64,000 nucleotides of DNA from Anaerolineae bacterium (lineage in GTDB: Bacteria; Chloroflexota; Anaerolineae; JAAYZQ01). This document shows positions 10,029 to 25,393 of this stretch, piece after piece. The notes beneath the pieces were generated by a model. It was not told where the DNA came from. It saw only the letters and a list, made by a program, of their open reading frames with translations, and did no database searches. The stretch is taken from the NCBI GenBank assembly GCA_034435455.1, contig DAOTXL010000137.1, forward strand, positions 54,687 to 118,686, read 5' to 3'. The stretch's first letter is position 1. Each line of letters begins with the position of its first letter. A program made the translations under genes and the position numbers.

Positions 10029-10091
10029 AGACTCCTCACCCGTGATGGTTGCTTTTCTTCCTGACCTGGCAGGCTGTGGCAGGACGGAGCT

Positions 10092-10119: not shown

Positions 10120-10122
10120 AGA

Positions 10123-10156: not shown

Positions 10157-10204
10157 GTGATGTGGGCTCTCCGATGGCTTTCCAGGAGGGTACTGCCGGT
10201 ATGA

Positions 10205-10666
10205 TCAGAAGTCGCGGTAGATGACCTCTTCGTACCAGCCTTCTACCAGGTTTTTGTGCCGGAGTTCATCTTTGGCCATGGCCTCGAACAGGTCGCGGAT
10301 CTCGCCCTCGTTCTGCTCTGCCAGGTCGCGGTATAGCTCATAAGACTGCTGTTCTTTCCGCGAGGCAAAGATGCACACATCCTGGAAGGTCGAGTCGGGT
10401 CCCAGCGGCTGGACAACCAGATGATCGCCGATCTTGTAGTCCTGGATGGGGGCCTGTTGCAGGCGTCGGACGGCCCGGCGGACGCTGCCGGGGCTGGCCA
10501 GCATCCGTTCCAGGGCGGCTTTGTGCCCCAGTTCCTCCTGGGCGAGCTGGCGCAACGTCTCTTTGACATGCTCGGCCTTGACCAGGGCCACGGCGTGGGT
10601 GTACAGTTCATGAGATTCGATCTCACCCTGGATCGCTTCTTTCAGGATCTCTTCAATGGCAGACAT
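10205..10666 (-). CDS. Rubrerythrin/ferritin-like diiron protein
   Basis: Two E-x-x-H motifs (EELGHKAALERM, DELRHKNLVEG). AAGGAG RBS 6 nt before the ATG (MSAIEE...). The track ORF's TTG extension was rejected. Confidence 0.6.
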   Translation of the reverse strand: MSAIEEILKEAIQGEIESHELYTHAVALVKAEHVKETLRQLAQEELGHKAALERMLASPGSVRRAVRRLQQAPIQDYKIGDHLVVQPLGPDSTFQDVCIFASRKEQQSYELYRDLAEQNEGEIRDLFEAMAKDELRHKNLVEGWYEEVIYRDF

Positions 10667-10718
10667 CGTTCGCTCCTTGGTTTTGACTTTCAAAAGTGGC
10701 GGGTGCAGGTCGGCCGGA

Positions 10719-11096
10719 TCACTGCTTCAGCAGCCGGTTGACCTCTTGGACCATCCGCTGCAGTGGGACAGGCTTGGTCAAGAAGGTGTCCAGGTGGATG
10801 TACTCGTCGGTCGGGAACAGTTCGGCATAGTCGGTGTTGGCGATGGAGGTCACCATGATGATCGGAATCTCTTTATAGTCCGGGTGTTCGCTCAGGGCTT
10901 GAGAAACCGACAGGCCGTCCAGGACGGTGGCCATGATGATGTCCAGGATGATCAGGTCGGGGGGTTCCTGGTTGATCTTGCGCAGGGCTTCGTCGCCGCT
11001 GGCGGCGCTGTCAACCTGGTAGCCTGCCTGTTCGAGGGCGATGGAGGTGGCGGCGACAAAGTCGGGATCGTCATCTACCACGAGAATTTTAGCCAT
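10719..11096 (-). CDS. Stand-alone response-regulator receiver domain (CheY-like)
   Basis: MAKILVVDDDPDF...D...ILDIIM...K motifs; GGAGAAGGAAAATG RBS. It overlaps the upstream stop. Confidence 0.8.
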   Translation of the reverse strand: MAKILVVDDDPDFVAATSIALEQAGYQVDSAASGDEALRKINQEPPDLIILDIIMATVLDGLSVSQALSEHPDYKEIPIIMVTSIANTDYAELFPTDEYIHLDTFLTKPVPLQRMVQEVNRLLKQ

Positions 11097-12363
11097 TTTC
11101 CTTCTCCTTACATTGCCGGTAACGGATATGGTCTTGGTATTCATGGCGGAAATGCTGGAGGGAAGAGAGGACCGGGTTCACCACGGCGTCGCCCATGGGG
11201 CACAGGGTATGGCCGGCGATCCCCTGACACAACGATTCCAGACGGTCCAGGTCGTCGGGCTGGCCCTGTCCCTGCACGATGCGGGTCAACGTCTCCAGCA
11301 GGCGCAGGGAACCCATGCGGCAGGGGGTGCACTGGCCACACGACTCGTGGGCGAAAAAGTCGATCAGGCGGCGGGCCACTTCGACCATGCAGGTCCCCTC
11401 TTCCATGACCACGATCGCCCCGGTGCCCAACATGGTGCCGGCCTGGGCCAGCGATTCAAAGTCCATCGGGATGTCAATCTGGTCGGGCAGCAACATCGGC
11501 GTGGAGGCTCCGCCGGGGATCACCGCCTTGAGGGGGCGGTCGCCGCGCATCCCGCCGGCATACTGCTCGAGGAGGGTGCGCAGGGGCGTGCCCAGCGGCA
11601 GTTCATAGTTTCCCGGTCGCCGCACATGCCCGCTGATGCAAAAGAGTTTGGGCCCGGGGCTCTTTTCTGTCCCCATCGTTCGGTACCACTCGGCGCCGTG
11701 CAGGACGATGTGGGGCACGTTGGCCAGCGTTTCGACGTTGTGGACCAGGGTGGGCCGGTTCCAGAAGCCTCTCTGGGTCGGGTAAGGCGGCTTGAGGCGC
11801 GGCTCGCCCCGTTTCCCTTCCAGGGAGTTGATGAGGGCCGTCTCTTCGCCGCAAATGTAGGCCCCTGCCCCCCGGTGCACCGACAGGTCCAGGTCAAAGC
11901 CGCTGCCCAGGATATTTTTGCCCAGGAAGCCGTAGGCATAGGCGTCGTCAATGGCTTTGATCCAGCGTTTGACCCCCAGGAAAAACTCGCCGCGGATGTA
12001 GACAAAGGCGCGATGGGCGCCCACTGCATAGGCAGCGATGATCGTCCCCTCGATGATCGAGTGGGGATCGTGCTCCACCAGCAGGCGGTCTTTGAAGGTC
12101 CCCGGTTCCCCTTCATCGGTGTTGACGCAGAGGTATTTGGCGACCGGTTCTTTGGGCATAAACCCCCACTTGACGCCCGCCGGGAAGCCGGCCCCCCCCC
12201 GTCCCCGCAGGCCGGAAGCTTTGACCAGGGCGATCAGCTCTTCAGGCAACATCTGCAGGGCCTTGCGCAGGGCGGTGTAGCCGCCGCGCTCCAGGTAGAC
12301 GGCGATCCGTTCCGAGTTGGGGATGCCCACGTTGCGCGTCAGGACCGGCGCAAAGGTGCCCAT
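11089..12363 (-). CDS. NuoF/HoxF/FdsB-type NAD(H)-binding FMN + 4Fe-4S flavoprotein
   Basis: GRGGAGFPAGVKW, ICGEETALINSLEG and ESCGQCTPCR motifs. Confidence 0.85.
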   Translation of the reverse strand: MGTFAPVLTRNVGIPNSERIAVYLERGGYTALRKALQMLPEELIALVKASGLRGRGGAGFPAGVKWGFMPKEPVAKYLCVNTDEGEPGTFKDRLLVEHDPHSIIEGTIIAAYAVGAHRAFVYIRGEFFLGVKRWIKAIDDAYAYGFLGKNILGSGFDLDLSVHRGAGAYICGEETALINSLEGKRGEPRLKPPYPTQRGFWNRPTLVHNVETLANVPHIVLHGAEWYRTMGTEKSPGPKLFCISGHVRRPGNYELPLGTPLRTLLEQYAGGMRGDRPLKAVIPGGASTPMLLPDQIDIPMDFESLAQAGTMLGTGAIVVMEEGTCMVEVARRLIDFFAHESCGQCTPCRMGSLRLLETLTRIVQGQGQPDDLDRLESLCQGIAGHTLCPMGDAVVNPVLSSLQHFRHEYQDHIRYRQCKEKENG

Positions 12364-12818
12364 GGGGCTGCCCTCTCGATCAGCTCATCAATCAACAGGT
12401 CCACTTTGGCCGTGGTGAGGTTTTCGTACAGCTCGTCGTTCACCCGCATGGCCGGGGCCGTGCCGCACGAGGCCAGGCATTGCACCGTTTCCAGGGTAAA
12501 CAGGCCATCGGCCGTCGTTTCTCCGACCTGGATTTCCAGTTTGCGCTGCAAATAGTCCACCAGCCGCTCGGCCCCGTCGGCCAGGTAGCAGCTCAACCCC
12601 CGGCAGACCTGGAGCACGTACCGGCCCGCCGGCCGGGTGCGGAACAGGGTGTAGAAGCTGGCCGTGCTGTACACCCCGGCCTGGGGCAGGCCCAGCCGTT
12701 CGGCCACCCGTTCCAGCGCCTCCGGGGAAAGATACCGTTCTTGCTCCTGGGCGATGTAGAGGGCGGTGAGGAGGCGCGCCCGTCTGGCAGGGTCAGGGAC
12801 CTGGGGGCCTGTGGCCAT
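12339..12818 (-). CDS. NuoE/FdsG-type thioredoxin-like [2Fe-2S] subunit
   Basis: CRGLSCYLADG...CLASCGTAPAM cysteine pattern. Confidence 0.85.
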   Translation of the reverse strand: MATGPQVPDPARRARLLTALYIAQEQERYLSPEALERVAERLGLPQAGVYSTASFYTLFRTRPAGRYVLQVCRGLSCYLADGAERLVDYLQRKLEIQVGETTADGLFTLETVQCLASCGTAPAMRVNDELYENLTTAKVDLLIDELIERAAPWAPLRRS

Positions 12819-12860
12819 CAGCCGCTCTCCTTTCCTGGTTCCCTGTGGCCCTGGGGGCCG

Positions 12861-13355
12861 TTATCCTCCCCAGGGCATCTGGGCGTACTCTTCAAAGGCC
12901 CGGTCGTGGAGCGTCTTGAACAGCTTTTCGTGCTGCCGCTCCCAGCCGGCCAGCATCTGGAGCGATTTTCGGGCGGCGGCGTCTTGCACCCGCTCGGCGG
13001 CCAGGTCGTAAAACTCGGCAAAGTCGCGTTCGATGAGATAGGCCATGCGCAGCACCGCCAGGTCGGGCACCATGGCTTCGATAACCGTTTGATCGAGCAG
13101 TTCGCTCACGGCCCGATCGGAGAAAAAGCCCGACCGTTCTAGCTCCAGGCCGGCCTCCGGGCCGGTGTCGCCGGCGGCATCCAGGGCGCTGAGGAGGGTC
13201 TGGATAAACTGGATATGTTTTTCCTCCTCCTGGGCCAACTGCTCGAACACGCCGATAACGGCCGCGTGGCCGAAGCGACCGGCATTGGCCCGGAAAAAGT
13301 CCCGCCCTTCCTCTTCACGTTTCAGGGCGTATTGGTATATTTTTTCCAGGTCCAT
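12861..13355 (-). CDS. Rubrerythrin/ferritin-like diiron protein (second copy in the operon)
   Basis: E-x-x-H pairs (EEEKHIQF, WERQHEKL). CAGGAGGAAACGATG RBS in front of MDLEKIY... Confidence 0.6.
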   Translation of the reverse strand: MDLEKIYQYALKREEEGRDFFRANAGRFGHAAVIGVFEQLAQEEEKHIQFIQTLLSALDAAGDTGPEAGLELERSGFFSDRAVSELLDQTVIEAMVPDLAVLRMAYLIERDFAEFYDLAAERVQDAAARKSLQMLAGWERQHEKLFKTLHDRAFEEYAQMPWGG

Positions 13356-13390
13356 CGTTTCCTCCTGGCAGGGCGAAATGACATCTTGTC

Positions 13391-16090
13391 CTACAACGCT
13401 TCGACCTTGATGGCACACACCTTGAACTGCGGGATCTTGCCGACCGGGTCCAATGCGGCGATGGTCAGCTTGTTGGCTGCTGCTTCGGCAAAGTGCCAGG
13501 CCATGAACACAACGCCCGGATCGGTCCTGGGGCTGACCAGGGCCTCTGCTTCGACGGAGCCGCGCCGCGACGACAGGCGCACCCGTTGGCCGTCGGCGAT
13601 GCCCAGCCGGGCGGCGTCATCGGGGTTGATCTCGACCAGCGGTGCCGGGTAGATGGCCGTCAGCCCGGCCGACCGGCGGGTCATGGAGGTGGTGTGGTAG
13701 TGGTATAGCACCCGGCCGGTGGTCAGGATGAACGGATAGGTCTCGTCCGGCTCCTCGGCGGGCGGTTGCCAGTCCACGGCGCTGAACAGGCCCAGCCCGC
13801 GGCTGAACTTGCCTACGTGCAGGATCGGGGTGCCGGGGTGGTCGGGGTTCGGGCAGGGCCATTGCAGGCCCTGGTCACCGATGCGGTCGTAGGTGATGCC
13901 GGCGTAGCTGGGGGTCAGGCGGTTGATCTCGTCCATGATCTCCCGGGGCGAGGGGTAGGTCAGGCCGTCGTAGCCCATCCGGCGGGCGATCTGGCCGATG
14001 ATCCACCAATCGGGCCGGGCCTCGCCGGGCGATGGCACTGCCGGTCGGACAAACTGCACCCGTCGTTCTGAATTGGTAAAGGTGCCCAGCTTTTCCGCCC
14101 AGCTCTGGGTGGGCAGCACCACGTCGGCCAGGGCCGCTGTCTCGGTGAGGAAAATATCCTGGACCACCAGGAACTCCAGGCTGCGCAGGCACTGTTCGGT
14201 GTGGTTGGCGTCCGGATCAGATAGCAGGGGGTTTTCGCCCATGATGTACAGGGCGCGGATTTCGCCGGTTTCGGCCCGGGATAACATCTCGGTCACCGTC
14301 AGGCCCACTTGATTGGAGAGGGGCACTCCCCAGGCCTCTTCAAACTTTTTCCGACTGGCCTCCAGGGTCACGGCCTGGTAGCCGGTGTAGACGTTGGGCA
14401 GGCCGCCCACATCGCATGCGCCCTGGACGTTGTTCTGACCGCGCAGGGGGTTGACTCCGCCGCCCGGCAGGCCGATATTCCCCAGGAGCATCTGCAAGTT
14501 GGCGCAGCTCAGCACGTTCCGGTGGCCGGTGTTGTGCTGGGTGATGCCCATGGCGTACAGCATCGCGCCCGGTTTGTGGGCCGCCAGCAGGTGGGCCGCT
14601 TCGACGATCTGTTCGGCCGGCACACCGCAGATCGCCGCCACCCGCTCCGGCGGGTATTCCAGGATTTTGGCTTTGAACTCCGCAAAGCCCTCGGTCCGTT
14701 CGGCGACGAACTGTTTGTCGTACAGATCCTCGGTGATCAGGACGTGCATGATGCCGTTGAGCAGGGCGATGTCGGTGCCCGGTTTCTGGCGGATGTGGAG
14801 GGTGGCGTATTCGGCGATGGGGATGGTGCGCGGGTCACACAGGATGATCCGGGCGCCCCGCTGCTTCACCGCCTGGCGGAGCCGCATGCCCAACACCGGG
14901 TGGTTTTCGGTGGTGTTGGAGCCGATGATCAGGTAGATCTGGGCCTGTAGGGCGATATCGTCGAAGGAGTTGGTCATCGCCCCGGAGCCGAAAGCTGTGA
15001 CCAGACCGGTCACGGTCACGCTGTGTCAAAGGCGAGCACAGTGGTCTACATTGTTCGTTCCCATCACAGCGCGGGCGAACTTTTGCATGACATAATTCTC
15101 TTCGTTGGTGCATTTGGCCGAGGCCAGGGCGGCGAACGCCGAGGGCCCATACCGGTCCTTGATCTCCCGCAGCCGGGTGGCAACCAGGTCGAGGGCCTCG
15201 TCCCAGGTGGCCTCTTCCAGCTCGCCCCCCTTTTCTCGACGGATCAAAGGCCGGGTCAGCCGGTCGGGGTGGTGGACGAAATCCCAGCCGAAACGCCCCT
15301 TGACGCAGAGCCAGCCGTGGTTGGCCGGGGCGTCCCACTTGGAAGCCACGCCCAGGATGCGCCCGTCTTTGACCTTGAGGTAGAATTGGCAGCCCACGCC
15401 GCAGTAGGGGCAGGTGGTCGCCACCTGGGTCATCTCCCAGGCCCGGCCCTGACCCTGACCCAGGAGGGGGTGCAGCGCCGCCGTTGGGCACAGTTCGACG
15501 CACATGCCGCAGAATTCGCATGGGCTGTCCTGGAGCGTGCCGTCGAAAGCGGTGCCGATCTTGCTTTCCCAGCCGCGCCAGATGACGCCGATGGCCTCCA
15601 CGCCGTTGATCTCCTGGCAGGCGCGGACGCAACGGCGGCAAAGGACGCACTTGTTATAGTCGCGGATGAAGAACGGGTTAGAGGTGTCCAGGGGGTAGTG
15701 GTGCTGGGCGCCGGGGAAGCGGCTCTGTTTGATGCCGTATTGATAGGCCAGGTCTTGTAGCTCGCAGCTCCCCGTCCGCTCGCAGGTCATGCAATCCAGG
15801 GGATGGTCCGAGAGCAGCAGTTCCAGGACAAACCGCCGGGCTTCCTCCACCTGGGGCGAGTGGGTCTTGACCTCCAGGCCATGGGTTGCCGGAAAGGTGC
15901 AGGCCGGTTGCAGCGTCCGCTGCTGCGCCACTTCTACCAGACACAGGCGGCAGGCACCGATGGGGGCCAGGGCGGGGTGATGGCACAGGGTGGGGATTTT
16001 GATGCCCGCGGCGGTGGCTACCTCCAGGATCGTCTGCCCCTCTCGGGTCTGGATTTTCTGTCCGTTGATGGTAAGGGTCACCGTTGTCAT
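13391..16090 (-). CDS. fdhA: Formate dehydrogenase catalytic (alpha) subunit, selenocysteine-containing: N-terminal 2Fe-2S/4Fe-4S (NuoG-like) domains plus molybdopterin domain
   Basis: ORFs 15026..16090 and 13391..15019 are in the same frame and separated only by TGA. Read-through gives ...[33 protein letters not shown], which aligns to E. coli FdhF ...CARV-U-HGPSVAGLHQSVGNGAMSN. Confidence 0.8.
14990..15025 (-). ncRNA. SECIS-like hairpin directly 3' of the in-frame UGA
   Basis: mRNA reads UGA CAC AGC GUGACC-GUGACC-GGUCU-GGUCAC: a 6-bp stem with a GGUCU apical loop about 15 nt after the UGA. E. coli fdhF has GGUCUG at the same place. Confidence 0.5.
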
Positions 16091-16140
16091 TGCCGATTGC
16101 CTTTCCGTTCAGGATGAAATATGGGGCCGGGGCCTCTTGT

Positions 16141-19100
16141 TTATACCAATGAGCCAACCTGGCGCGGCGGAACCGGCTCGAAGGCCAACTCCATCTCTTG
16201 CAGCCATTCCAGGTCGCAGCGCAGGCAGCGCTTGCATTCCTCCTGGGCTGCCCGCTCGTCCAGCCCCAGCTCTACCTCGCGAAAGTTGCCCCGCCGCTCC
16301 TCCACCGGAAGTTCGGGCATCTCCGGCGGGTGGGCCTGGGCATAGTCGTCCAGGTTGAAGGGCTGGTCCACCACTTCGTAGCCGGGTATGGTGATGATCG
16401 GCTCCACCCTGCCGGTTTGCAGATAATAGTCCACCGTCCGGGCCACAGCGTTGCCCTGGGCCACAGCTTCGACCACCGAAGCCGGCCCGCTGACGGCGTC
16501 GCCGGCAGCAAAGACGCCGGGGCGGGAAGTGGCCAGGGCGTCGTTCACGAGCAGGGTGTTGTCCCGCCGCACCTCGACCTGCCCTGCCAGCCCATCCGGG
16601 TCGGGTGTCTGGCCGATGGCCGGGATCAGCACATCCAGGTCGAGGACGAACTCGGAACCGGAGAGCGGCACCGGGCGGCGGCGGCCACTTCGGTCGAATT
16701 CGCCCAGGGTGTGGCGCAGGCATTCCACGCCGGTGACGTGGCCGTCGCCCAACACCCGGGTAGGGTTGGTCAAAAAGTGAAAGACCGTGCCTTCCTCTTC
16801 GGCAGCCTCGATCTCCTCTTTGTAGGCCGGCATCTCGTCGCGGCGCCGCCGGTAGAGGATGTGCACCTGGCTGGCGCCCAGCCGCCAGGCCGTGCGCGCG
16901 GCGTCAATGGCCACGTTGCCGCCGCCGACCACGCCGACCCGTTTGCCCTTCAGGTCGGGGGCATGGCCCAGGGCCACGTCGCGCAAAAAGTCCACACCGT
17001 GGATGACCCCCTCCTTTTCCTCCCCTTCAATCCGCAACCGGCCGCTATAGTGGGCGCCGATGGCCAGCACCACGGCGCTGTATCCCTGCTCCAGGAGGGA
17101 GTCCAGGGTAAAGTCGCGGCCCAGGGCTTGATTGCAGCGGATCTCGACGCCGGCGCGGCGGATGTTGTCAATTTCGACCTGGAGGATCTCCTTGGGCAGG
17201 CGGTAATCGGGGATGCCCACGGCCATCATCCCGCCGGGGATGGGGAGCTTTTCGAATACGGTGACCCTGTACCCCTGTTGGGCCAGGCGCAACGCTGCGG
17301 TCAGGCCGGCCGGACCGGAGCCCACCACCGCCACCTTCTCGGTCTTGGGCTTGCCCAGGAGGGGAGGCGTCCAGGGGTTCTTGAGCTCATGGTCGGCCAT
17401 AAAACGTTTCACGGCGCGGATGGCGATCGGTTCGTCAATGTCGCCGCGCCGGCAGCGGGACTGGCAGAAGGCGGGGCATACCCGACCGCAGACCAGGGGG
17501 AAGGGGTTGGTCCGGCGGTGGATCTCCAGCCCCTCGGCGTAGCGGCCCTGGGCGATGAGGGCCACGTAGCTGGGCACATCCACATCGGCCGGGCAGGCGT
17601 TGGTGCAGCGGGCCCGGACCAGCTCTTTGCAGACGCCGGCCGGGCAGCGCTTTTCCACGATGTGGGCTCGGAACTCGTCCTCAAAGTAGCGCAGCGCCGC
17701 GTTGATCGGCCCCGGTGTCAGTTGCCCCAGGGCGCACAGGCTGCCGGTTTCCATCCCAGCCGCGATCTGGCGGATGGCATCCAGGTCTTCTAGCCGACCC
17801 TGCCCCTTGGTGATGCGGGCCAGCACCTCCAGCAGCCGCTTGCCGCCCATGCGGCAGGGGATACATTTGCCACAGCTCTCGGCGGTGGCAAAGGTCAGGA
17901 AGAACCTGGCGAACTCGACCATGCAGGTGTCTTCGTCCACCACGATCATGCCGCCGGAGCCCATCACCGCGCCCACTTCTTTGAGGGAGTCGAAATCCAC
18001 CCGCACATTCAGGTGTTCGGCGGGGATGCAGCCACCCAGCGGGCCGCCGGTCTGCACGGCCTTGAACCTTTTGCCGTTGGGCACGCCACCGCCGATGTCA
18101 AAGATAATCTCCCCCAGGGTGATGCCCATGGGAACCTCAACCAGGCCGGTGTTGTTCACCTTGCCGGTGAGGGCAAAGATGGCCGTGCCGGGGGAACGGG
18201 GCGAGCCGATGTTGGCAAACCATTCTGCCCCGCGCAGGATGATCTGCGGCACGTTGCAGTAGCTCTTGACGTTGTTCAGGTTGGTGGGTTTGTTCCACAA
18301 CCCCCGGACGGCGGGGAAGGGAGGGCGGGGGCGGGGTTCGCCGCGGCGGCCTTCGATGGAGGCTAGCAGCGCCGTCTCTTCGCCGCAGACAAAAGCGCCC
18401 GCGCCCTCTTTGACATAAAGGCGGAAGGAGAAGTTGGACCCCAGGATATTGTCCCCCAACAGCCCATATTCCTCGGCCTGGGCGATGGCGATCTTGAGGC
18501 GTTTGATGGCCAGCGGATACTCGGCCCGGCAATAGATGTACCCTTCCCGGGCCCCCACCGCGTAGCCACAGATGGTCATCCCTTCGATCAGGCTGTGGGG
18601 GTCACCTTCGATAAGGGAACGGTCCATGAAGGCCCCCGGGTCCCCCTCATCGGCGTTGCACACCACATATTTGACGTCGCCGGGCGCCTTGGCGGTCAGC
18701 TCCCATTTGATGCCGGTGGCAAAACCGGCGCCACCTCGCCCCCGCAGCCTGGAGGCTTTGACCTCTTCGATCACTTCGGCCGGTGTCATGGAGGACAGGA
18801 CCTTGACGAGGGCCTGATAACCATCCCGGGCGATATATTCCTCGATATTCTCCGGGTCGATCATGCCGCAGTTGCGCAGGGTGATGCGCAGTTGTTTGCT
18901 GTAGAAGGGGATTTCGCCGTAGAACGGCACGGCCTGGTGGGCCGAAGGCTCCTTGTAGGTCAGCCGTTCTACCACACGCCCTTTGAGCAGCGTCTCTTCG
19001 ACCAGAAACGGGACATCTTCTGGTTGGACCTGACAGTAAAAGATGCCGTCGGGGTAGATGATCATCACCGGCCCCATGGCACAGAACCCCCGGCAGCCGG

Positions 19101-19242
19101 TGTGCACCACCTGGACCTCACCTGCCAGCCCCTGGCGTTCGACCTCCTGCACCAGGGCCTGGTAGACGCCGGTCGATCCAGAGGCTTCGCAGCCGGTTCC
19201 GCCGCAGACCAGCACACTGGCCCGATAGATTGCTTCGGTCAT
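16141..19242 (-). CDS. Multidomain flavoprotein: NuoE-like [2Fe-2S] + NuoF-like (FMN/NAD, 4Fe-4S) + 2x[4Fe-4S] + GltD/NfnB-like FAD/NAD(P) oxidoreductase domain
   Basis: 1033 aa. VLVCGGTGCEASGS...CRGFCAMGP, then GRGGAGFATGIKW and ESCGKCIPCR, then two CxxCxxCxxxCP ferredoxin motifs, then VAVVGSGPAGLTAA...VGVVGGGNVAIDAAR...VFAAGD. Confidence 0.8.
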   Translation of the reverse strand: MTEAIYRASVLVCGGTGCEASGSTGVYQALVQEVERQGLAGEVQVVHTGCRGFCAMGPVMIIYPDGIFYCQVQPEDVPFLVEETLLKGRVVERLTYKEPSAHQAVPFYGEIPFYSKQLRITLRNCGMIDPENIEEYIARDGYQALVKVLSSMTPAEVIEEVKASRLRGRGGAGFATGIKWELTAKAPGDVKYVVCNADEGDPGAFMDRSLIEGDPHSLIEGMTICGYAVGAREGYIYCRAEYPLAIKRLKIAIAQAEEYGLLGDNILGSNFSFRLYVKEGAGAFVCGEETALLASIEGRRGEPRPRPPFPAVRGLWNKPTNLNNVKSYCNVPQIILRGAEWFANIGSPRSPGTAIFALTGKVNNTGLVEVPMGITLGEIIFDIGGGVPNGKRFKAVQTGGPLGGCIPAEHLNVRVDFDSLKEVGAVMGSGGMIVVDEDTCMVEFARFFLTFATAESCGKCIPCRMGGKRLLEVLARITKGQGRLEDLDAIRQIAAGMETGSLCALGQLTPGPINAALRYFEDEFRAHIVEKRCPAGVCKELVRARCTNACPADVDVPSYVALIAQGRYAEGLEIHRRTNPFPLVCGRVCPAFCQSRCRRGDIDEPIAIRAVKRFMADHELKNPWTPPLLGKPKTEKVAVVGSGPAGLTAALRLAQQGYRVTVFEKLPIPGGMMAVGIPDYRLPKEILQVEIDNIRRAGVEIRCNQALGRDFTLDSLLEQGYSAVVLAIGAHYSGRLRIEGEEKEGVIHGVDFLRDVALGHAPDLKGKRVGVVGGGNVAIDAARTAWRLGASQVHILYRRRRDEMPAYKEEIEAAEEEGTVFHFLTNPTRVLGDGHVTGVECLRHTLGEFDRSGRRRPVPLSGSEFVLDLDVLIPAIGQTPDPDGLAGQVEVRRDNTLLVNDALATSRPGVFAAGDAVSGPASVVEAVAQGNAVARTVDYYLQTGRVEPIITIPGYEVVDQPFNLDDYAQAHPPEMPELPVEERRGNFREVELGLDERAAQEECKRCLRCDLEWLQEMELAFEPVPPRQVGSLV

Positions 19243-19283
19243 CTCTATCCTCTTCCTATTGTTGTCCGATGCCGGTAACTGTT

Positions 19284-19326
19284 CAGGTGCCAGGCACTTG
19301 GGCGAATTCTACAAGTGCCTGGCACC
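19284..19326. promoter_or_regulatory. Dyad-symmetric element, copy A: two AAGTGCCWGGCACTT-type 15-mers separated by 13 bp
   Basis: aactgttcAGGTGCCAGGCACTTgggcgaattctacAAGTGCCTGGCACcc. It lies in the 5' region of the fusion flavoprotein gene, between two copies of a 27-bp direct repeat (19248-19274 and 19336-19362). Confidence 0.5.
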
Positions 19327-19343
19327 CGATAGTAACCCTCTTC

Positions 19344-19733
19344 CTATTGTTGTCCGATGCCGGCGGTGGGTACCCGGCCCATGGCCCATTCCTGAATGAC
19401 CCGGCCGTGGATCAGATGCTCTTCGATCAGCCGGGGTACCATGTCAGGGTGGACGTTGCAGTAGGTAATGCGCGGTTGGCCCGCCTGTTCGATATCCACC
19501 AGCGGTTCTTTGGAGCACATCCCGATGCAACCGACCGTGGAGACATGGGCATCAATCCCCCGCTTTTGTAGTTCGGCCAGGATGGCGTGCATGGTCTCGC
19601 GGGCACCGGCGGCGATGCCACAGGTGCCCATGCCGACGACGATCCGGGTCCCCGTCTCGGTCCGGACTTTGAGGGCTTGTTGGGCTTGTTCGCGGATTTT
19701 TTGCAGTTCGTCAATATTTTTGAGCCTGGGCAT
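19344..19733 (-). CDS. Thioredoxin-like [2Fe-2S] ferredoxin (HndA/NuoE C-terminal-domain-like)
   Basis: VVGMGTCGIAAGARE...VGCIGMCSKEPLV cysteine pattern. Confidence 0.7.
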   Translation of the reverse strand: MPRLKNIDELQKIREQAQQALKVRTETGTRIVVGMGTCGIAAGARETMHAILAELQKRGIDAHVSTVGCIGMCSKEPLVDIEQAGQPRITYCNVHPDMVPRLIEEHLIHGRVIQEWAMGRVPTAGIGQQ

Positions 19734-19990
19734 AGTCTCCTCTCTTCTTCATGGCCTGCGGCCGATCAGGTGTCTGGCGTTCTTGCTGCCCCGGAGGACC
19801 GGGCCTTGCAGAAGGTTTGATCTGGACATTCTGCCCGGTTCGGCCCCGGCGAGAAGCTGGAACCTTGGGACCGGGCAGACCTGGGCAAAGGGCAAAAGGA
19901 TGTCTGAACCCTCGTCAGAAACTTTTTTCAGCCGGACAGGGTTGTCCCCTTGTCTCACGACAGGCACTCCCTATAGCCGGCCCCTCGTGA

Positions 19991-20090: not shown

Positions 20091-20119
20091 AGTTTAGCAC
20101 GAACCCGGTTGCCTGTCAA
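20091..20119 (-). promoter_or_regulatory. Sigma70-like promoter, TTGACA-N17-TGcTAAACT, reading leftward into a roughly 345-nt leader
   Basis: Consensus -35 hexamer, 17-bp spacer and extended -10. The same GTGCTAAACTTCACAA block recurs at 25905-25925. Confidence 0.45.
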
Positions 20120-20342: not shown

Positions 20343-21728
20343 ATGGAGGGTGGCATCCCTTTTGAGACAGAGCTGATCGAGCGCATCGGCTGGCTCATCC
20401 GCCTGCGCTGGCTGGCCGTTGTCGGCACGGCGGTGGCTGTGGCCCTGGGCTGGTTGATATACCGGGGCGCGTTGCCTGTGGGGCCCCTGCTCGGTACTGT
20501 CCTGGCCATTGCCCTGTACAACGGCCAGTTTTCCTTCTACGCCCACGCCCTTCGGTCGAGCCAGGCCGGCATCGTCCGGCTGCGGCAGGCGAGCCGCTTT
20601 GCTTCCCTCCAGATCGTGTTGGACCTGCTGGCCCTGGCCGTCCTGCTCCACTTTTCCGGCGGGGTCGAGAACCCGATGGCCCTGTTTTTTGTGTTCCATA
20701 CCATTATTGCCAGCATTCTCCTGTCGCAGCGGGTGAGCTTTGTGATGGCCACGTTGGGAGCTGTGCTGTTTGCCGCTGTCGCCGGGAGTGAGTATGCGGG
20801 CCTGCTGCCCCACTATCATCTGCCTGTCCTGAAGGGGATCGAATTCTATCGGGCTGGTGGCTATGTGCTGACCGTTGTGGGGGTGATGGCCCTGACCCTG
20901 GGGCTGGTGGCCTACATGACCTCTTCCATCAGCGTCAGGCTGCGCGAGCGGGACCGGGAGTTGGTGCAGAGCCACCAGGCTATCCTGGCCAAGAGCCTGG
21001 AATTGCAGGCGGCCAATGAACGGTTGCGGCGGGTGGATGCCGAGCGCACCCGGTTCATAACCCTGGTTACCCACGAACTGCGGGCGCCTATCAATACCAT
21101 CTATACCTGTGTGGAGCTGGCCCTGACCGGTTCTGTTTCCCCGGAAACGGTGCGTGACATGCTGGAACGGGTCAAAAGGCGGGCGGCTGAACTGTCGGAA
21201 TTGATCGGCGACCTGTTGCGGCTGGCCCGGGCGCGGGAGGAGGCCAGTCGGGATGAGGAGGTGGGGATCATTCAGCCGGCCGAGGTGTTGCAGAGTGTGG
21301 TCCAGCTCATGAGGACGGAAGCCTATAGCAAGGACCTGTTTCTCAGCGTGGATATAGACCCGGATCTGCCCCCGGTCCGGGCCAATCCCGACCGTCTGAA
21401 GCTGGTGTGGACCAACCTGTTGAGCAATGCCATCAAGTACACCGAACCGGGCGGCATCGTGGCTGTGGCCCTGAAGCATACTCCTGACCAGGTGGTGGGC
21501 ACTGTGCGGGATACCGGCATCGGCATTGCGCCGGAGGATCAGCAGCGGATCTTTGAAGAGTTTTACCGCGCTGACAATGCCCGGGCCCTCTGCCCGACGG
21601 GGACGGGGGTGGGGTTGGCCATCGTGCGGCGCATTATTGAAAATTGGGGGGGCAGGGTGTGGGTCGAATCGGAGCTGGGTCTGGGGAGCAAGTTCACCTT
21701 TGTCCTGCCCAGGGCGGATGTGGGGTGA
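20343..21728 (+). CDS. Membrane sensor histidine kinase (HisKA + HATPase_c)
   Basis: Multiple TM helices, the H-box ITLVTHELRAPIN and N/G boxes (LLSNAIKYT, DTGIGI, GTGVGLAIV). Confidence 0.8.
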   Translation: MEGGIPFETELIERIGWLIRLRWLAVVGTAVAVALGWLIYRGALPVGPLLGTVLAIALYNGQFSFYAHALRSSQAGIVRLRQASRFASLQIVLDLLALAVLLHFSGGVENPMALFFVFHTIIASILLSQRVSFVMATLGAVLFAAVAGSEYAGLLPHYHLPVLKGIEFYRAGGYVLTVVGVMALTLGLVAYMTSSISVRLRERDRELVQSHQAILAKSLELQAANERLRRVDAERTRFITLVTHELRAPINTIYTCVELALTGSVSPETVRDMLERVKRRAAELSELIGDLLRLARAREEASRDEEVGIIQPAEVLQSVVQLMRTEAYSKDLFLSVDIDPDLPPVRANPDRLKLVWTNLLSNAIKYTEPGGIVAVALKHTPDQVVGTVRDTGIGIAPEDQQRIFEEFYRADNARALCPTGTGVGLAIVRRIIENWGGRVWVESELGLGSKFTFVLPRADVG

Positions 21729-21743: not shown

Positions 21744-22211
21744 TCACAGCGTTTCAGCCGACCGTTCACACGCTTCGCGGGTATGATGGAGCCGGGAGGC
21801 GATGACCTCGGCCAACTGTTTCATCACCACGAACCCGATGTGGGGCTCGCGGTCAAAGAGGGCGTTGAGGTCATCGGCCTTGAGGGTGAGCAGGGTCACC
21901 GGTTCCAGAGCGGTAGCCGAAGCGGTGAAGCGCTGCTGTTTGACTAACGAGGACCAGCCAAAGATGCGTCCCGGCTTGACCTCCTCGATGGTGGTCTCGC
22001 CGCCGGGCTCCAGGGTGGAGCGCAGGCGGATGTGGACCTGGACCCGGCCGGTCTGCAGGATGAAGAGCCGGTCGGCCAGTTCTTGCTCGGCGCAGATCAG
22101 GTCGCCGGCCTGGTACGTTTCTTCGCGGACGAGGGGGGCGATTTGGGCCAGGGCATCGTCGCTCAATTCATAGAATAGTTCGCAGTCACGCAGGGCTTCT
22201 GGCGAAATCAC
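21744..22211 (-). CDS. Stand-alone cyclic-nucleotide-binding domain protein
   Basis: CAP-effector-domain pattern (FILQTGRVQV...GRIFGWSSLV...ASATAL); GTG start with a GGGAGGAAAAGAAC RBS. Confidence 0.65.
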   Translation of the reverse strand: MISPEALRDCELFYELSDDALAQIAPLVREETYQAGDLICAEQELADRLFILQTGRVQVHIRLRSTLEPGGETTIEEVKPGRIFGWSSLVKQQRFTASATALEPVTLLTLKADDLNALFDREPHIGFVVMKQLAEVIASRLHHTREACERSAETL

Positions 22212-22243: not shown

Positions 22244-22789
22244 TCAGGGCAAAGTCAGTTCTGCCTCCCCTTCAGCGATATACTCGCCCAGCCATAGCCA
22301 GACCTGGGGATGGGAGAGGGGGACCTCGCCCAGTTCGGCCTGCAGGTCGGCTGTGTCGAACTCGAACGTTTTGCCGTTGACCTGGTGGCGGTAACGCAGG
22401 CGCACCTCCTGTTTGGAGAGCAGGAAGGCCAGCAGGGTATCGGCAATGTTGCCCAGCGGGGCTCGATCCAGATGGCTGTGGCGAAAGCTGGCTGTGACCG
22501 TGGTGCCCTGGCCACAGGCCGATTGCAGGGTCAGGCCGCCCTCGCACAGTTCTGCCGCCTGGGCCAGAAGCGGCAGCCCCAGGCCTACATGGCGGGTGGT
22601 CCGGGTGGTGAAGAACGGGTCTACGGCCTGCCGGGCCGTCTCGGCGTCCATGCCCCGGCCGTTGTCGCGCACGGTGATGGTCAGCCGGTCGGCCGCCAGG
22701 TCTTCGACAATGTTCAGATCCACCTGGGTGGCTCCGGCTTCCAGGGCGTTCTGCAGCAGGTCCAGGATGTGCAGGGACAGCTCGCGCAT
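22244..22789 (-). CDS. GHKL-type ATPase (histidine-kinase-like ATP-binding domain only)
   Basis: NALEAG...DNGRGMD...GLGLPL (N, G1, G2 boxes); AAGAGG RBS before MRELSL... Confidence 0.6.
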   Translation of the reverse strand: MRELSLHILDLLQNALEAGATQVDLNIVEDLAADRLTITVRDNGRGMDAETARQAVDPFFTTRTTRHVGLGLPLLAQAAELCEGGLTLQSACGQGTTVTASFRHSHLDRAPLGNIADTLLAFLLSKQEVRLRYRHQVNGKTFEFDTADLQAELGEVPLSHPQVWLWLGEYIAEGEAELTLP

Positions 22790-22830
22790 CCTCTTGTCCT
22801 CGCCGGGTAGGACCACCCTCTGGGGTCCGG

Positions 22831-23298
22831 TTACTCCAGGCTGTCTACAAGGGCGGCCATGCTCTCCGGGACCAGGTGGCCCACCACCTTGTCGTCAATC
22901 ATGGCTACCGGGGCCAGGCCGCAGGAGCCCAGGCAGTAGACCACTTCGTAGGTCAGCCGATAGTCGGGGGTTGTCTCGCCCGCCTGGATCCCCAGGCGGT
23001 TTTGGATCGTATCAATAATGCGCGCGGCGCCTCGCACGTGGCAGGCGGTGCCATCGCATTGGCGGATGACGTGTCGCCCGCGGCGGGTGAGGTAGAACTG
23101 GGAGTAGAAGGTCACCACGCCATAGATCTGGCTCAGCGGGACCTTCATTTCCTGGGCGATCGTTTTGAGCACCGGCTGGGGCAGCCAGCCATAGATCTCC
23201 TGGGCTTTTTGCAGGACCGGGATCACCGCTCCGCGCTGTGTTTTATACCTTTCCAACACCTCGTACAGGGGAGCCAGGTTTAGAGCCTCTTCTGCCAT
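22831..23298 (-). CDS. NuoE/HoxE-like thioredoxin-like [2Fe-2S] protein
   Basis: CDGTACHVRGA...CLGSCGLAPV pattern. Confidence 0.8.
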   Translation of the reverse strand: MAEEALNLAPLYEVLERYKTQRGAVIPVLQKAQEIYGWLPQPVLKTIAQEMKVPLSQIYGVVTFYSQFYLTRRGRHVIRQCDGTACHVRGAARIIDTIQNRLGIQAGETTPDYRLTYEVVYCLGSCGLAPVAMIDDKVVGHLVPESMAALVDSLE

Positions 23299-23332: not shown

Positions 23333-24073
23333 CTACTGAATTCTGACCCACCGGCCGGCCTGACCTGCCAGCGCCAGGGCCAGTTCGGCCACGGTAGGCT
23401 GCTGCACTTTGAACATTGTCCGCGCCGTCATCTCTTCCAGGCGGTGGGCATCGCCGCTGACGATTATGCCATAACCTGCCGTCTGAGGCAAACGCCGGGC
23501 CACTTCTAGCGGGTCGGCTTTGCGCGACAGCTCCAGGCCGGCGATCGGCAGGTGGGGGGGGATGAACCCCAGGTTGACGATCAGGCTGTTGGTGGGGCGA
23601 TCGAGGTGGGCCGGCAGCACGATCCCCCCCAGCGTCTGTGTGCCGGTCACCACCTCCTCCACCGACAGGGAGGCTGCGACCGACAACAGCCGTTTTTCGG
23701 TGTAGAGGTACTGGCCGGTTGCGTCTACGACGAACTGGGCGCCAAAGAACTCTTCGTTGTTCTCCCGGTCTGGCAGGGCGGCCCATACCTGTTTCTGCCA
23801 GGCCAGGACCTGTTCCACCGTGTCGAACAGGCAGATCAGGTGCACCTCCTCCCGGCTCTGGACCTCCATGCCGGGCAGGACCGTCAGGCCGGTGCCGGCT
23901 GCTGCTTCGACCACGGCGGCGGTGTTGCCGGCCGCATTGTGGTCGGTGATGGCCAGCAGTTCCAGCCCCAGTTCCCTTGCCCGCCTGACGATGAGGGGGG
24001 GGATCATTTCCACCTCAGCGCAGGGTGACAGGACGGTATGCACATGGAGGTCGGCCAGCAGGTAGTGCCACAT
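23333..24073 (-). CDS. PHP-domain (polymerase/histidinol-phosphatase-like) metal-dependent phosphoesterase
   Basis: LADLHVHTVLSPCA...ITDHN...GMEV motifs. Confidence 0.7.
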   Translation of the reverse strand: MWHYLLADLHVHTVLSPCAEVEMIPPLIVRRARELGLELLAITDHNAAGNTAAVVEAAAGTGLTVLPGMEVQSREEVHLICLFDTVEQVLAWQKQVWAALPDRENNEEFFGAQFVVDATGQYLYTEKRLLSVAASLSVEEVVTGTQTLGGIVLPAHLDRPTNSLIVNLGFIPPHLPIAGLELSRKADPLEVARRLPQTAGYGIIVSGDAHRLEEMTARTMFKVQQPTVAELALALAGQAGRWVRIQ

Positions 24074-24113: not shown

Positions 24114-24452
24114 CTATGCTCCGGCGATGCCCAGGGCGCTCAACTGGCCGGTCACGGTAAAGGTCGTTTGCGGTGAGCTCAACAGCGTTACCTCATTCTC
24201 CCGGGCCCGGTCCACCGTTTCCCGATCCGGCATCACCCCTTCGGTGATGATCACGGCAGCCAGGTCCAGCAGCGAGGCTACAGCTACGACGTTGGGGTGG
24301 GCCTGGAGGGTGACCCACACGTTGCCCGACCGGGCCCGGGCCATCACACAGCTCAGCAGGTCTGAAGCATAGCCGCCGGTCACCGGGCGGTTCATCTGGC
24401 CGGGGGTGATCACCTGCAGCCCCAACCTGCTCACCAACTCTTGGACAAGCAT
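24114..24452 (-). CDS. DRTGG-domain protein
   Basis: QVITPG...VMARAR...SLLDLAAVIITEG pattern, typical of the DRTGG family. Confidence 0.6.
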   Translation of the reverse strand: MLVQELVSRLGLQVITPGQMNRPVTGGYASDLLSCVMARARSGNVWVTLQAHPNVVAVASLLDLAAVIITEGVMPDRETVDRARENEVTLLSSPQTTFTVTGQLSALGIAGA

Positions 24453-24463: not shown

Positions 24464-25393
24464 TTATCTTTCGGGCGGTGGAATGCGGAACCAGGTCTCC
24501 AGGCGGGTGCCGGCGCCCGGCTCCGATTCCAGCTTCATCTCATCGGCACAATGCTGGATGTTCAAGAGCCCCATGCCGGCACCAAAGCCCATTTCGCGGA
24601 TCCATTCGGGGGCGGTGGAAAAACCGGGACGCATGGCCTGTTCTACGTCGGCGATGCCGGGGCCGGTGTCGGTAGCTACGATGTGCACCTGGTCTGGCTG
24701 GATTTCGACCACCAATTCGCCGCCCTTTTCAGCGTGGATGATCAGGTTCATCTCGGCCTCGTAGGCGGCCACCCCCACGCGCCGGGCGATGACGGGGCTC
24801 CCCCCCAGGCGTTCGATGGCCCGCTTGATTCGGCTGGAGGCAGCTCCGCCGTGGGTGAAATCCAGGGGCCGCACCTGGTAGCGCAGGATCAGGCTGGTGC
24901 GGTCGGACATAATGTCCTCAAAGATGTGGCTGGCCCGATAGCGATGGATCTCTTCCTCGTGATAATCTACTTCCAATCGCCGCAGCAGTCCCCGGATGAT
25001 CTCGCCCCGGGTCAGGATGCCCACCAACTGCCCAGAGCGGTCCAATACCGGGAAGCGGCCAAAGTCAAAGCGGATCATGCGGTTGATGGCCTGGACCAGC
25101 GGCTCATCGGCGTAGAGCACTTCGACCCTGGTGGTCATTTTGTCTCTGACCAGGGCATCCATTTCCCCTTTTTCCAGGGCCTTGATCAGGTCTTCCAGGC
25201 TGATGATCCCCACCAGCCGGGTTTCTTCGACGACCGGTGTGCCGGAAATGCGCTTGAGGCGCAATAGCTCCTTGAACTCGCGCATGGAGGTATGGGGGGT
25301 GACGGTGACCACCTCGGCTTTCATGACATCTTGGATTTTGAGGGTGTAGATCAGCTCTTGGAGCCGTGAGCCTTCGGCGGGGCGGACGGTCAT
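24464..25393 (-). CDS. CBS-pair + GHKL (HATPase_c) protein
   Basis: Two CBS-like repeats (VMKAEVVTV..., GRFPVLDRSGQLVGILTRGEI) then an anti-sigma-kinase-like ATPase (LIIHAEKGGELVV..DTGPGI..GFGAGMGL). Confidence 0.7.
   Translation of the reverse strand: MTVRPAEGSRLQELIYTLKIQDVMKAEVVTVTPHTSMREFKELLRLKRISGTPVVEETRLVGIISLEDLIKALEKGEMDALVRDKMTTRVEVLYADEPLVQAINRMIRFDFGRFPVLDRSGQLVGILTRGEIIRGLLRRLEVDYHEEEIHRYRASHIFEDIMSDRTSLILRYQVRPLDFTHGGAASSRIKRAIERLGGSPVIARRVGVAAYEAEMNLIIHAEKGGELVVEIQPDQVHIVATDTGPGIADVEQAMRPGFSTAPEWIREMGFGAGMGLLNIQHCADEMKLESEPGAGTRLETWFRIPPPER

Follow-up and report, generated by a model that had tools for sequence, protein, structure and literature searches.

A selenocysteine formate dehydrogenase locus of an Anaerolineae bacterium encodes a BfuB::GltD fusion and a second, plain NuoE/NuoF module

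The window analysed here is a stretch of 64,000 nucleotides (nt) from an Anaerolineae bacterium (assembly GCA_034435455.1, contig DAOTXL010000137.1, positions 54,687 to 118,686 of the forward strand), and it carries a formate dehydrogenase (FDH) locus in which one catalytic subunit, the selenocysteine (Sec)-containing FdhA, is encoded beside two different sets of NuoE/NuoF-related flavoprotein genes. The reading we favour, with a probability of roughly 0.55, is that a single cytoplasmic FdhA of the FdsA type is served by two pyridine-nucleotide modules: module A, which is Bfu-like and would handle both NAD(H) and NADP(H), and module B, which would be a plain NAD(H) module. An initial annotation, made from the letters of the sequence, had proposed one atypical module, and the locus holds both kinds, the Bfu-like and the plain NuoEF one. 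Assignments were made with Pfam and NCBIfam profiles, with PDB matches for solved relatives and by synteny in related loci. Loci carrying the central gene of module A, a fusion described below, were found in at least 80 species-level genomes, and locus counts refer to 80 loci unless 84 is stated; the closest of them (L001) belongs to an Anaerolineae metagenome-assembled genome (MAG).

The window has a G+C content of ~65%, and its minus strand from 19733 to 10205 holds eight reading frames with a strong third-position GC bias. In that order they encode a 129-residue protein, the 1033-residue fusion, FdhA, a 185-residue rubrerythrin-like protein, NuoE, NuoF, a receiver and a 162-residue rubrerythrin-like protein, at intergenic distances of 101, 50, ~35, 42, -25, ~-8 and ~25-50 nt. 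The last of them is separated from the next gene by 176 nt, and the tight spacing within the row fits an operon. All of the minus-strand genes named initially were confirmed by reading frames and by Pfam/NCBIfam; the 129-residue gene, which lies in the same row, had been left unnamed. The gene order and domain content indicate that the functional unit reaches further upstream, to 25767, and is broken by a plus-strand histidine kinase gene. This upstream part, which includes the small partner of the fusion (BfuC, 22831-23298) and a conserved block of DRTGG, CBS-HATPase, PHP and HATPase genes, had been overlooked.

The fusion (16141..19242, minus strand) was assigned from Pfam, NCBIfam and PDB matches, alignment with HydB and the conservation of ligands in its orthologues. 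Residues 1-95 form a thioredoxin-like [2Fe-2S] domain (B5), residues ~130-530 the NuoF core with the flavin mononucleotide (FMN)/NAD(H) site and the B1 [4Fe-4S] cluster, and the B2 linker (H527/C533/C538 plus C440) leads into a GltD domain of the Stn/NfnL type (residues 543-1012), with two [4Fe-4S] clusters, flavin adenine dinucleotide (FAD) and the NADP(H) site GGGNVA...YRRRRDEMPA. The N-terminal 545 residues are of the HydB/BfuB type; their best PDB match is 7t2r_B (1.9e-252), the HydB of the bifurcating NiFe-HydABCSL of Acetomicrobium mobile, and the next are FeFe-HydB, StnB and NfnB. The B2 linker, AHIVEKRCPAGVCK, is close to the linker of HydB, StnB and NfnB, with the His and both Cys residues aligned, and the protein carries the Bfu-type motif GAFMDR (as DPGAFMDR), which covers the residues equivalent to A202/M204 of A. 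mobile HydB. The Bfu-specific residue F182 of the latter has no unambiguous position in the fusion and was left unused.

Past the segment CPAGVCKELV, a canonical HydB (P0248) continues with two CX2CX2CX3C motifs, the ferredoxin-like B3/B4, whereas the fusion goes into the Fer4_20 part of GltD. The alignment with P0248 and with HydB/StnB from the PDB shows that the ferredoxin-like B3/B4 domain (two CX2CX2CX3CP motifs) is absent from the fusion. The GltD part is closest, at ~50% identity, to the GltD-like insertions in the large subunits of Stn/NfnABC (9bov_A; 8oh5_C residues 101-568), and it is also homologous to NfnL (4ylf_B, 1.4e-92; 5jca_L). It shares the circular permutation of Stn/NfnABC, the RNFxEV...CxRCLxC segment (here RNFREV...) being C-terminal, where in Thermotoga maritima NfnB it is N-terminal, and it has the GxGxxA and YRR NADPH motifs. 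Judged by sequence, the protein is best described as BfuB(delta-Fd domain)::GltD (BfuB::GltD below) from the Bfu (HydABC/Stn) bifurcating family, and it is ranked as a variant and not as a canonical Bfu member because B3/B4 is absent. The NuoE/NuoF/GltD fusion reported initially is thus real and joined, except that its N-terminus is only the thioredoxin-like [2Fe-2S] domain of HydB/BfuB and not a whole NuoE. The domain search suggested then for 16141..19242 bore out the NuoF core and the GltD domain, and its key outcome, the replacement of B3/B4 by GltD, had not been recognised.

In 67 full-length orthologues (47-86% identity) the junction is kept throughout. The B2 residues C440, C533 and C538, the B1 residues C457/C460/C463/C503 and the eight Cys of GltD are conserved in 100% of them, the B5 residues C13/C18/C50/C54 in 84-99% and the His column (H527) in at least 95%. 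The NADP(H)-type site is likewise conserved, in keeping with the earlier suggestion of NADP coupling. At least 120 homologues at 71-95% identity were present among the matches listed, nearly all of them full-length (~1030-1060 residues) with few truncated or longer, and in a representative library ~10 clusters at 50% identity hold homologues of the fusion. These numbers rule out the alternative, raised at the outset, of a misjoined FdsB/FdsG pair. The loci are found in Anaerolineae, Desulfobacterota, Planctomycetota, Hydrogenedentota, Acidobacteriota, Armatimonadota, Poribacteria, a Nealsonbacteria MAG and Thermoplasmata archaea, and in public records the homologues are named just 'NuoF' or 'FAD-dependent oxidoreductase'.

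Some observations on the wider family stand apart from the window. A family of ~650 residues (P0311, P0316, P0325, P0326, P0329, P0357, P0365 and P0371) matches only residues ~410-1010 of the fusion; this 'headless' form has the C-terminal four-helix bundle of NuoF with the B1 Cys, the B2 linker and GltD, without the FMN domain. A second NuoE/BfuB-type cluster lies beside the first in L012, L020, L074 and L050, with the second match 5-8 kb downstream; in the first three it is a paralogous fusion (58-59% identity) and in L050 a shorter BfuB-type match (55%). In L075-L077, which come from MAGs of Nealsonbacteria and Thermoplasmata, the neighbour of the fusion cluster is a divergent cluster, on the opposite strand, with a canonical short BfuB.

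The fusion has a small partner of its own. The 155-residue protein at 22831..23298 (minus strand) is a NuoE homologue of the BfuC/HydC type with the C1 [2Fe-2S] site CX4C...CX3C (Pfam 2Fe-2S_thioredx, 4.8e-51). Its eight best PDB matches are all small subunits of the HydC/NfnC/StnA type from HydABC/Stn (Bfu) complexes (top match 7t2r_C, 1e-46), 76 of 84 loci have its gene upstream of the fusion, and it is only ~35% identical to the other NuoE of the window. Both the family and the position assign this protein as the true small (BfuC) partner of the fusion. The best solved relatives of the pair, HydB/HydC and Stn/NfnABC, agree with the earlier impression of a likeness to electron-bifurcating enzymes more than to FdsABG.

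The first gene of the row (19344..19733, minus strand) encodes a HydD-like thioredoxin-fold protein of 129 residues that matches residues 7-93 of 9n5u_B (1.6e-26) and 8oh5_B, and corresponds to a stand-alone copy of the N-terminal (B5-site) domain of NfnB/StnB with three of the four usual Cys. The gene is upstream of the fusion in most loci. P0035 carries a homologue (52% identity) as an N-terminal extension of the fusion protein, and the 129-residue protein is very probably a subunit of the complex for this reason. Cluster binding by it is doubtful, as three of the four Cys are present here and none in P0035. The layout hydC, kinase-like ATPase, hydD, hydB, hydA is that of the Caldanaerobacter HydABCD operon.

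The catalytic subunit is encoded directly after the fusion. FdhA (13391..16090, minus strand; 899 residues) is of the FdsA/FoDH1-alpha type by Pfam, NCBIfam and PDB matches, with a NuoG-like N-terminus ([2Fe-2S] and four [4Fe-4S] clusters) followed by the molybdenum/tungsten-bis-pyranopterin guanine dinucleotide domain, in which U355-H356, LRGQNNVQG and Molydop_binding are found. Its PDB matches, 7vw6_A (1e-241) and 6tg9_A, span residues 3-898 and are alpha subunits of NAD-dependent FDHs. The reading frame contains an in-frame UGA at 15026..15028 in the context VDHCARL-U-HSVTV, of which DHCARLUHS is common to 20 loci. A hairpin resembling a selenocysteine insertion sequence (SECIS), GUGACC-GGUCU-GGUCAC, lies at 14997..15013 on the same strand, 16-32 nt after the U of the UGA. 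In the 20 loci its loop, GGUCU, is invariant, and four versions of its stem are found, all fully paired (GUGACC/GGUCAC, GUGGCC/GGCCAC, GUCGCC/GGCGAC and GUCUCC/GGGGAC); compensatory changes set three of them apart from the commonest. Folding of the single sequence was no better than that of shuffles (z = 0.07), leaving the comparative analysis alone informative. The position of the hairpin and its GGUC loop match the SECIS of E. coli fdhF. The comparison supports the assignment of the UGA as a selenocysteine codon, and the Sec-FdhA of the initial annotation stands on this conserved context, the covarying hairpin and the full-length FDH matches. No tRNA-Sec or sel genes were found in the window.

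Comparison of the related loci showed that the catalytic partner of the fusion is exchangeable. The gene that follows the fusion, in the position of BfuA, is Sec-FdhA in 17 of the 80 loci, all of them from Anaerolineae/Chloroflexota. In 38 it encodes a NuoG-like protein of ~590 residues without Molydop_binding, the best solved match of which is HydA of NiFe-HydABCSL, and which is followed by a hydrogenase small subunit (Oxidored_q6, HydS) and large subunit (NiFeSe_Hases, HydL). A scan for the H-cluster motif identified a true [FeFe] HydA in four; of the remainder, 19 contigs were too short to classify and two were 'other'. Loci of the ~590-residue type had been considered as 'rearranged Stn transhydrogenases' with a dead subunit, and this was rejected on the match to HydA of NiFe-HydABCSL and the HydS and HydL genes that follow. 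Since the same diaphorase pairs with three types of catalytic partner, BfuC/BfuB::GltD behaves as an exchangeable module that would feed from a catalytic subunit, a general diaphorase combined with [NiFe]-hydrogenase, [FeFe]-hydrogenase or FDH, of which the window holds the FDH version. The synteny recurs in relatives, as had been proposed as a check, with a variable partner gene that is mostly a [NiFe]-hydrogenase, and BfuB::GltD is not specific to FDH.

The second NuoE/NuoF pair is of another kind. NuoE (12339..12818, minus strand; 159 residues, NuoE159) is of the complex-I/FdsG type (TIGR01958 above cutoff), and NuoF (11089..12363, minus strand; 424 residues, NuoF424) is above the cutoff of TIGR01959 (606 bits), with mycobacterial complex I NuoF (8e9g_F) as its best PDB match. 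NuoF424 is without the N-terminal thioredoxin domain and without B2-B4, and has EPGTFKDR in place of the Bfu-type DPGAFMDR; published criteria place proteins of this type as non-bifurcating (PMC9304861, PMC11829005). The next gene (10719..11144, minus strand; start probably the ATG at 11096) encodes a CheY-like single-domain receiver of 141 residues (Pfam Response_reg PF00072, 2.4e-22) in which the DD...D...T...K residues are present (VVDDD, LDIIM, VTS, TKP). NuoE159, NuoF424 and the receiver are assigned, by profile and motif, as a separate, plain, non-bifurcating triad. It recurs in L001, L002, L005, L018, L041, L056, L082 and L084, and the first six of these have it beside the fusion cluster. 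In L082 it forms part of a stand-alone operon, focA...fdhA(Sec)-nuoE-nuoF-receiver, with an FdhA 78-80% identical to that of the window and as near to it as the FdhAs from fusion-only loci. The pair had been seen initially as part of one bifurcating-like assembly, which does not hold: it is a plain module that together with FdhA would make a simple FdsABG-like enzyme, and it stands alone in L082. The triad as a detached N-module of complex I was also considered and, at the scale of these loci, rejected, as no nuo genes are present in the window or in L082-L084 and the triad is either part of an FDH operon or accompanied only by receivers and kinases.

The link between the receiver and this system, suggested initially, is borne out by the recurrence of the triad, by a NuoF-receiver fusion and by the adjacent kinase type. 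In L083 and L084 NuoE, NuoF and the receiver occur alone with kinases and extra receivers. P0206 (L083, 9001-10677) is a single chain of 558 residues that joins NuoF to a CheY-like receiver; NuoE and a GAF-PAS histidine kinase are encoded upstream of it and no FDH is nearby. L084 carries (5886-12905) an AsnC-type helix-turn-helix-receiver regulator and four tandem single-domain receivers, five receiver-domain genes in total, upstream of a NuoE-NuoF-receiver-ACT-PilS-type kinase row that adjoins Hdr-like genes (FlpD, CCG), and the triad there seems to be embedded in an elaborate phosphorelay. PilS-type kinases 37-47% identical to the kinase of the window flank the triad in L018, L041, L056 and L084. 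The window kinase (20343..21728, plus strand; 461 residues, Pfam 6TM_PilS, HisKA and HATPase_c), a membrane sensor histidine kinase, is a candidate cognate kinase for the receiver at 10719-11144.

From these genes we infer the following mechanism. Module A would consist of BfuC, the HydD-like 129-residue subunit and BfuB::GltD. In known Bfu enzymes, mid-potential electrons reach B1 and FMN through BfuA, NAD(H) reacts at FMN, and the mobile C1 domain of BfuC passes low-potential electrons to B3/B4 and on to ferredoxin (PMC12018979, PMC11829005); the part that GltD plays in Stn is confined to NADPH entry (PMC10482914). In module A, electrons from formate would pass along the iron-sulphur chain of FdhA to the B1-FMN-C1 site, with FMN as the reaction site of NAD(H), and the C1 branch that normally runs over B3/B4 to ferredoxin would run over the GltD clusters to FAD and NADP(H). 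This end point is the simplest reading because the GltD clusters are attached at the very point where B3/B4 would otherwise follow. Module A would thereby couple formate/CO2 to NAD(H) and NADP(H), by bifurcation at low formate and, reversed, by confurcation. Module B (NuoE159, NuoF424 and the receiver) with FdhA would be an FdsABG-like NAD+-dependent FDH. Modules A and B are probably alternative complexes on FdhA, since known structures take one NuoF-type subunit per NuoG-like N-terminus. The receiver, the PilS-type kinase and the upstream DRTGG, CBS-HATPase, PHP, HATPase and cyclic nucleotide (cNMP)-binding genes probably set which module is made or active, and the probable role of the rubrerythrin-like proteins is to protect the complex by passing electrons on to O2 or H2O2.

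Physiological potentials are given as -280 mV for NAD, -380 mV for NADP, -420 mV (standard) for formate and -500 mV for ferredoxin (PMC9304861, Table 1), and our Nernst estimate for micromolar formate against millimolar CO2/bicarbonate is ~ -330 mV. At that potential formate would be a mid-potential donor whose electrons could be split to NAD+ and NADP+. NADH and NADPH together would drive CO2 reduction in the opposite direction, and the same logic would hold for H2 in the hydrogenase relatives.

Several points weigh against this interpretation. The evidence for every member of the family comes from sequence, and nucleotide specificity at the FMN site is not predictable from it. Deletion of B3/B4 abolishes Bfu bifurcation, and these clusters, absent here, are published as essential for it (PMC12018979, PMC11829005); it may be that no bifurcation takes place here at all, or that the GltD clusters are a docking site for ferredoxin, as they are in NfnSL. 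Formate at standard conditions could reduce both NAD+ and NADP+ uncoupled, so that thermodynamics does not call for bifurcation. With one NuoF-type subunit per FdhA N-terminus in known structures, two modules would need alternative or mixed complexes. Furthermore, the opposite-strand kinase gene separates BfuC from the fusion, and the subunits are not all on one transcript. If the GltD [4Fe-4S] clusters are the equivalents of B3/B4 and exchange with ferredoxin, FAD/NADP(H) would be an extra port and the enzyme a hybrid of FDH and an Nfn/Stn-type transhydrogenase with four substrates (formate, NAD, NADP and ferredoxin). The homology of the GltD part to NfnL (set out above) and the conserved extra thioredoxin-fold subunit speak for this, as do the clusters of NfnL in NfnSL, which are described as the low-potential path to ferredoxin (PMC10482914, PMC12018979), and the use of ferredoxin by every characterised Bfu enzyme (PMC9304861). 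However, the nearest GltD relatives, of the Stn/NfnABC type, reportedly no longer bifurcate and serve for NADPH entry only (PMC10482914), the ferredoxin 'trap' of NfnABC needs the ferredoxin-like domain of BfuB that is absent here, and the conserved operon has no ferredoxin gene, which leaves this alternative possible but rather doubtful.

A different explanation is that two unrelated enzymes are neighbours through rearrangement: FdhA would work only with NuoE159/NuoF424, and BfuC and the fusion would be a separate NAD(P)H enzyme, either a transhydrogenase resembling Stn or the diaphorase belonging to a hydrogenase whose genes lie elsewhere. The stand-alone operon of L082, the FdsA-type character of FdhA along its whole length and the [NiFe]-hydrogenase partner of most fusion loci are in its favour, and there are signs of rearrangement in the insertion of the kinase and cNMP genes and in the placing of the triad between the rubrerythrin-like genes. 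We nevertheless regard it as unlikely: in 12 of the 17 FdhA-type loci, representing at least 12 species, FdhA directly follows the fusion (gaps of ~20-520 nt) and no NuoE-NuoF-receiver triad or NuoEF lies within 10 kb, FdhA occupies the position that HydA has in the hydrogenase versions, and without FdhA the fusion module of the window would have no NuoG-like subunit. An artefact of assembly or annotation, in the form of a misjoined NuoF and GltD or a split FdhA pseudogene, might be suspected from a metagenome-assembled source and from the splitting of FdhA at the TGA by the ORF (open reading frame) finder. It is refuted by the 67 independent full-length orthologues, drawn from several phyla and also from archaea, in which the junction is conserved, by an identical 1033-residue protein on a second contig and by the conserved UGA context and covarying SECIS hairpin in 20 loci, and its likelihood is close to nil.

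Individual parts of the two-module arrangement have clear counterparts. The alpha subunits of FdsABG/FoDH1 (Rhodobacter capsulatus 6tg9, Methylorubrum extorquens 7vw6) are homologous to FdhA over its full length, and FdhA with NuoE159 and NuoF424 reproduces the three-subunit layout of FdsABG; unlike FdsABG, the module of the window has an attached receiver, and NuoF424 is without the N-terminal domain of FdsB. The active site of FdsA uses Cys, whereas FdhA of the window has Sec. The same building blocks as in module A occur in Stn/NfnABC (Sporomusa ovata StnABC, 8oh5; Caldicellulosiruptor and Thermococcus NfnABC, 9bov and 9n5u), namely a HydC-type subunit, a HydB-type FMN subunit (thioredoxin-like, B1, B2), a permuted GltD and a NuoG/FDH-like subunit. 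In Stn, GltD is inserted in the NuoG/FDH-like subunit, the FDH-like domain of which is catalytically dead, and HydB keeps B3/B4 (PMC10482914, PMC7483475). In the window, by contrast, GltD is at the C-terminus of BfuB in the place of B3/B4, and Sec, His and Arg are present in the FDH subunit together with complete pterin-binding domains.

The NiFe-HydABCSL of A. mobile (7t2r) is the best solved match of the N-terminal half of the fusion, of BfuC and of the HydA of the hydrogenase-type relatives. It differs in that the C-terminus of its HydB is a 2x[4Fe-4S] ferredoxin-like domain without any GltD, in that C476 adds a further Cys to the B2 site at the position taken by Thr478 in the fusion (PMC9304861), and in that its catalytic partner is a hydrogenase and not an FDH. 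The Bfu FDHs, which are Gottschalkia acidurici HylABC-FdhF2 and the predicted type 1 Fdh-Bfu of Carboxydothermus hydrogenoformans, combine an FDH with a HydBC-type core as the window does, and in type 1 Fdh-Bfu the pterin domain is likewise in BfuA (PMC9304861). They react with NAD+ and ferredoxin, and unlike that of the window their BfuB is canonical, with no NADP(H)/FAD domain in any of them. Moorella thermoacetica FdhAB, a Sec-FdhA with an NADP-binding iron-sulphur flavoprotein beta subunit (PMC5736913), sets a precedent for CO2 reduction linked to NADPH; it was compared with the window by description only, and has two subunits and no FMN core of the HydBC type. In a study of Dehalobacteriia, a Stn cluster beside a molybdenum FDH was described as 'of unclear significance'.

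No description of a BfuB/HydB/NuoF-GltD fusion was found in the literature, of which coverage of subscription journals was thin, so that a prior description is possible. The components (Bfu core, Stn-type GltD, FdsA-type FDH and NuoEF) are all known, and the arrangement is apparently new. The published census of Bfu enzymes required a ferredoxin-type 4Fe-4S InterPro domain in BfuB and excluded metagenomic data (PMC9304861), and the BfuB::GltD family was probably overlooked for these reasons. We tentatively propose, as a possibility and no more firmly than that, that BfuC/BfuB::GltD is a ferredoxin-independent branch of Bfu in which NADP+ (E' ~ -380 mV), and not ferredoxin, is the low-potential acceptor of the flavobicluster, with formate or H2 bifurcated to NAD+ and NADP+ and the reverse confurcated. 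If this is true, neither Nfn nor ferredoxin would be needed for Anaerolineae, Desulfobacterota, Planctomycetota and others to generate NADPH from traces of formate or H2, or to dispose of both nucleotide pools as formate or H2, and the dead FDH domain of Stn could descend from an active-FDH state that the enzyme of the window would represent.

Enzymes of the Bfu type (HydABC, Stn/NfnABC and the bifurcating FDHs) are central to energy conservation in anaerobes and their mechanism is actively debated. Current models place the exit to ferredoxin at B3/B4 of BfuB, and here an NADP(H)-FAD domain naturally replaces it in at least 67 genomes and with three catalytic partners, making BfuB::GltD a natural experiment on the possible nature of the low-potential branch. 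As a candidate route from formate or H2 to NADPH, the family may serve uncultured but abundant Anaerolineae and Desulfobacterota, and it plausibly connects, in evolution, active FDH complexes to the Stn transhydrogenase, whose FDH domain is a relic. The plain NuoEF-receiver module sharing FdhA suggests a regulated choice between coupling modes.

The upstream regulatory block lies on the minus strand and was assigned from Pfam, for most of its genes together with synteny. It begins with a DRTGG-domain protein (25390..25767, 125 residues), followed by a putative regulator with a CBS pair and HATPase_c (24464..25393, 309 residues), a second DRTGG-domain protein (24114..24452, 112 residues) and a PHP-domain protein (23333..24073, 246 residues). 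A stand-alone HATPase_c protein (22244..22816, 190 residues), found in 42 loci, is encoded between BfuC and the 129-residue gene. The order DRTGG-CBS/HATPase-DRTGG-PHP-BfuC-HATPase-(129-residue)-(rubrerythrin-like)-fusion-BfuA is kept in at least 34 of 80 loci. In the window this otherwise conserved operon is split by the gene for a cNMP-binding protein (21744..22211, minus strand; 155 residues), found only here and in L081 of the same MAG, and by the opposite-strand kinase gene. The pair (20343-22211) was found only in this genome, and in L001 and others the HATPase gene is directly followed by the 129-residue gene without them, which points to a recent lineage-specific insertion.

A 609-nt divergent intergenic region (19734-20342) separates the 129-residue gene from the histidine kinase gene. 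A consensus scan detected in it a promoter-like, sigma-70-like -35/-10 pair on the minus strand (20091..20119, TTGACA-17-TAAACT with a TG extension), ~360 nt upstream of the 129-residue gene, which would give an untranslated leader of ~360 nt; Rfam at E<=1 gave no match for 19650-20400, the leader region. The same scan placed a promoter-like site at 25940-25912, upstream of the first DRTGG gene. Across the whole window Rfam at the gathering threshold gave no match to a riboswitch or other RNA, and a terminator scan gave counts no higher than in shuffled sequence.

Both rubrerythrin-like genes are on the minus strand and encode diiron proteins of the Rubrerythrin family (PF02915). One (12861..13418, 2.9e-12) is of 185 residues as listed, with its start probably at the ATG at 13355, and the other (10205..10693, 7.9e-15) is of 162 residues. 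Each has two ExxH motifs and the diiron four-helix domain only, the rubredoxin CxxC...CxxC domain being absent from both, and solved relatives are distant (2fzf_A, symerythrin). The two rubrerythrins named initially hold as to family and linkage, with the qualification that without a rubredoxin domain they are 'erythrin-like'. Homologues of either are present in 24 of 80 loci (10 of the 17 FDH loci and nine of the 38 NiFe loci), often directly upstream of the fusion, between it and the 129-residue thioredoxin-fold gene, and the 185-residue type follows FdhA in L001, L004, L044, L052 and L061. The two genes are adjacent in the fusion-only FDH loci L044, L052 and L061, and have the triad between them in the window and L001, where the triad looks like an insertion. 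In the predicted rubrerythrin-linked BfuBC enzymes (Rub-Bfu; Schut et al. 2022, PMC9304861) rubrerythrin genes adjoin BfuB-type genes, as in the window; Rub-Bfu is predicted to be without BfuA, whereas the rubrerythrin-like proteins here have no rubredoxin domains and accompany a complete FDH or hydrogenase complex.

Two neighbouring genes were also recorded. Directly downstream of the FDH row, a minus-strand gene (7707-10028) encodes a cNMP-binding domain, acetate kinase and PduL-type phosphotransacylase (PTAC) in one chain of 773 residues; L001 shares the synteny, with 91% conservation. A plus-strand gene (26614-28269) a little way upstream of the regulatory block encodes a RACo-type reductive activator of corrinoid proteins (Fer2, Raco_middle and RACo_C_ter), which hints at corrinoid methyltransferase or Wood-Ljungdahl metabolism in the organism.

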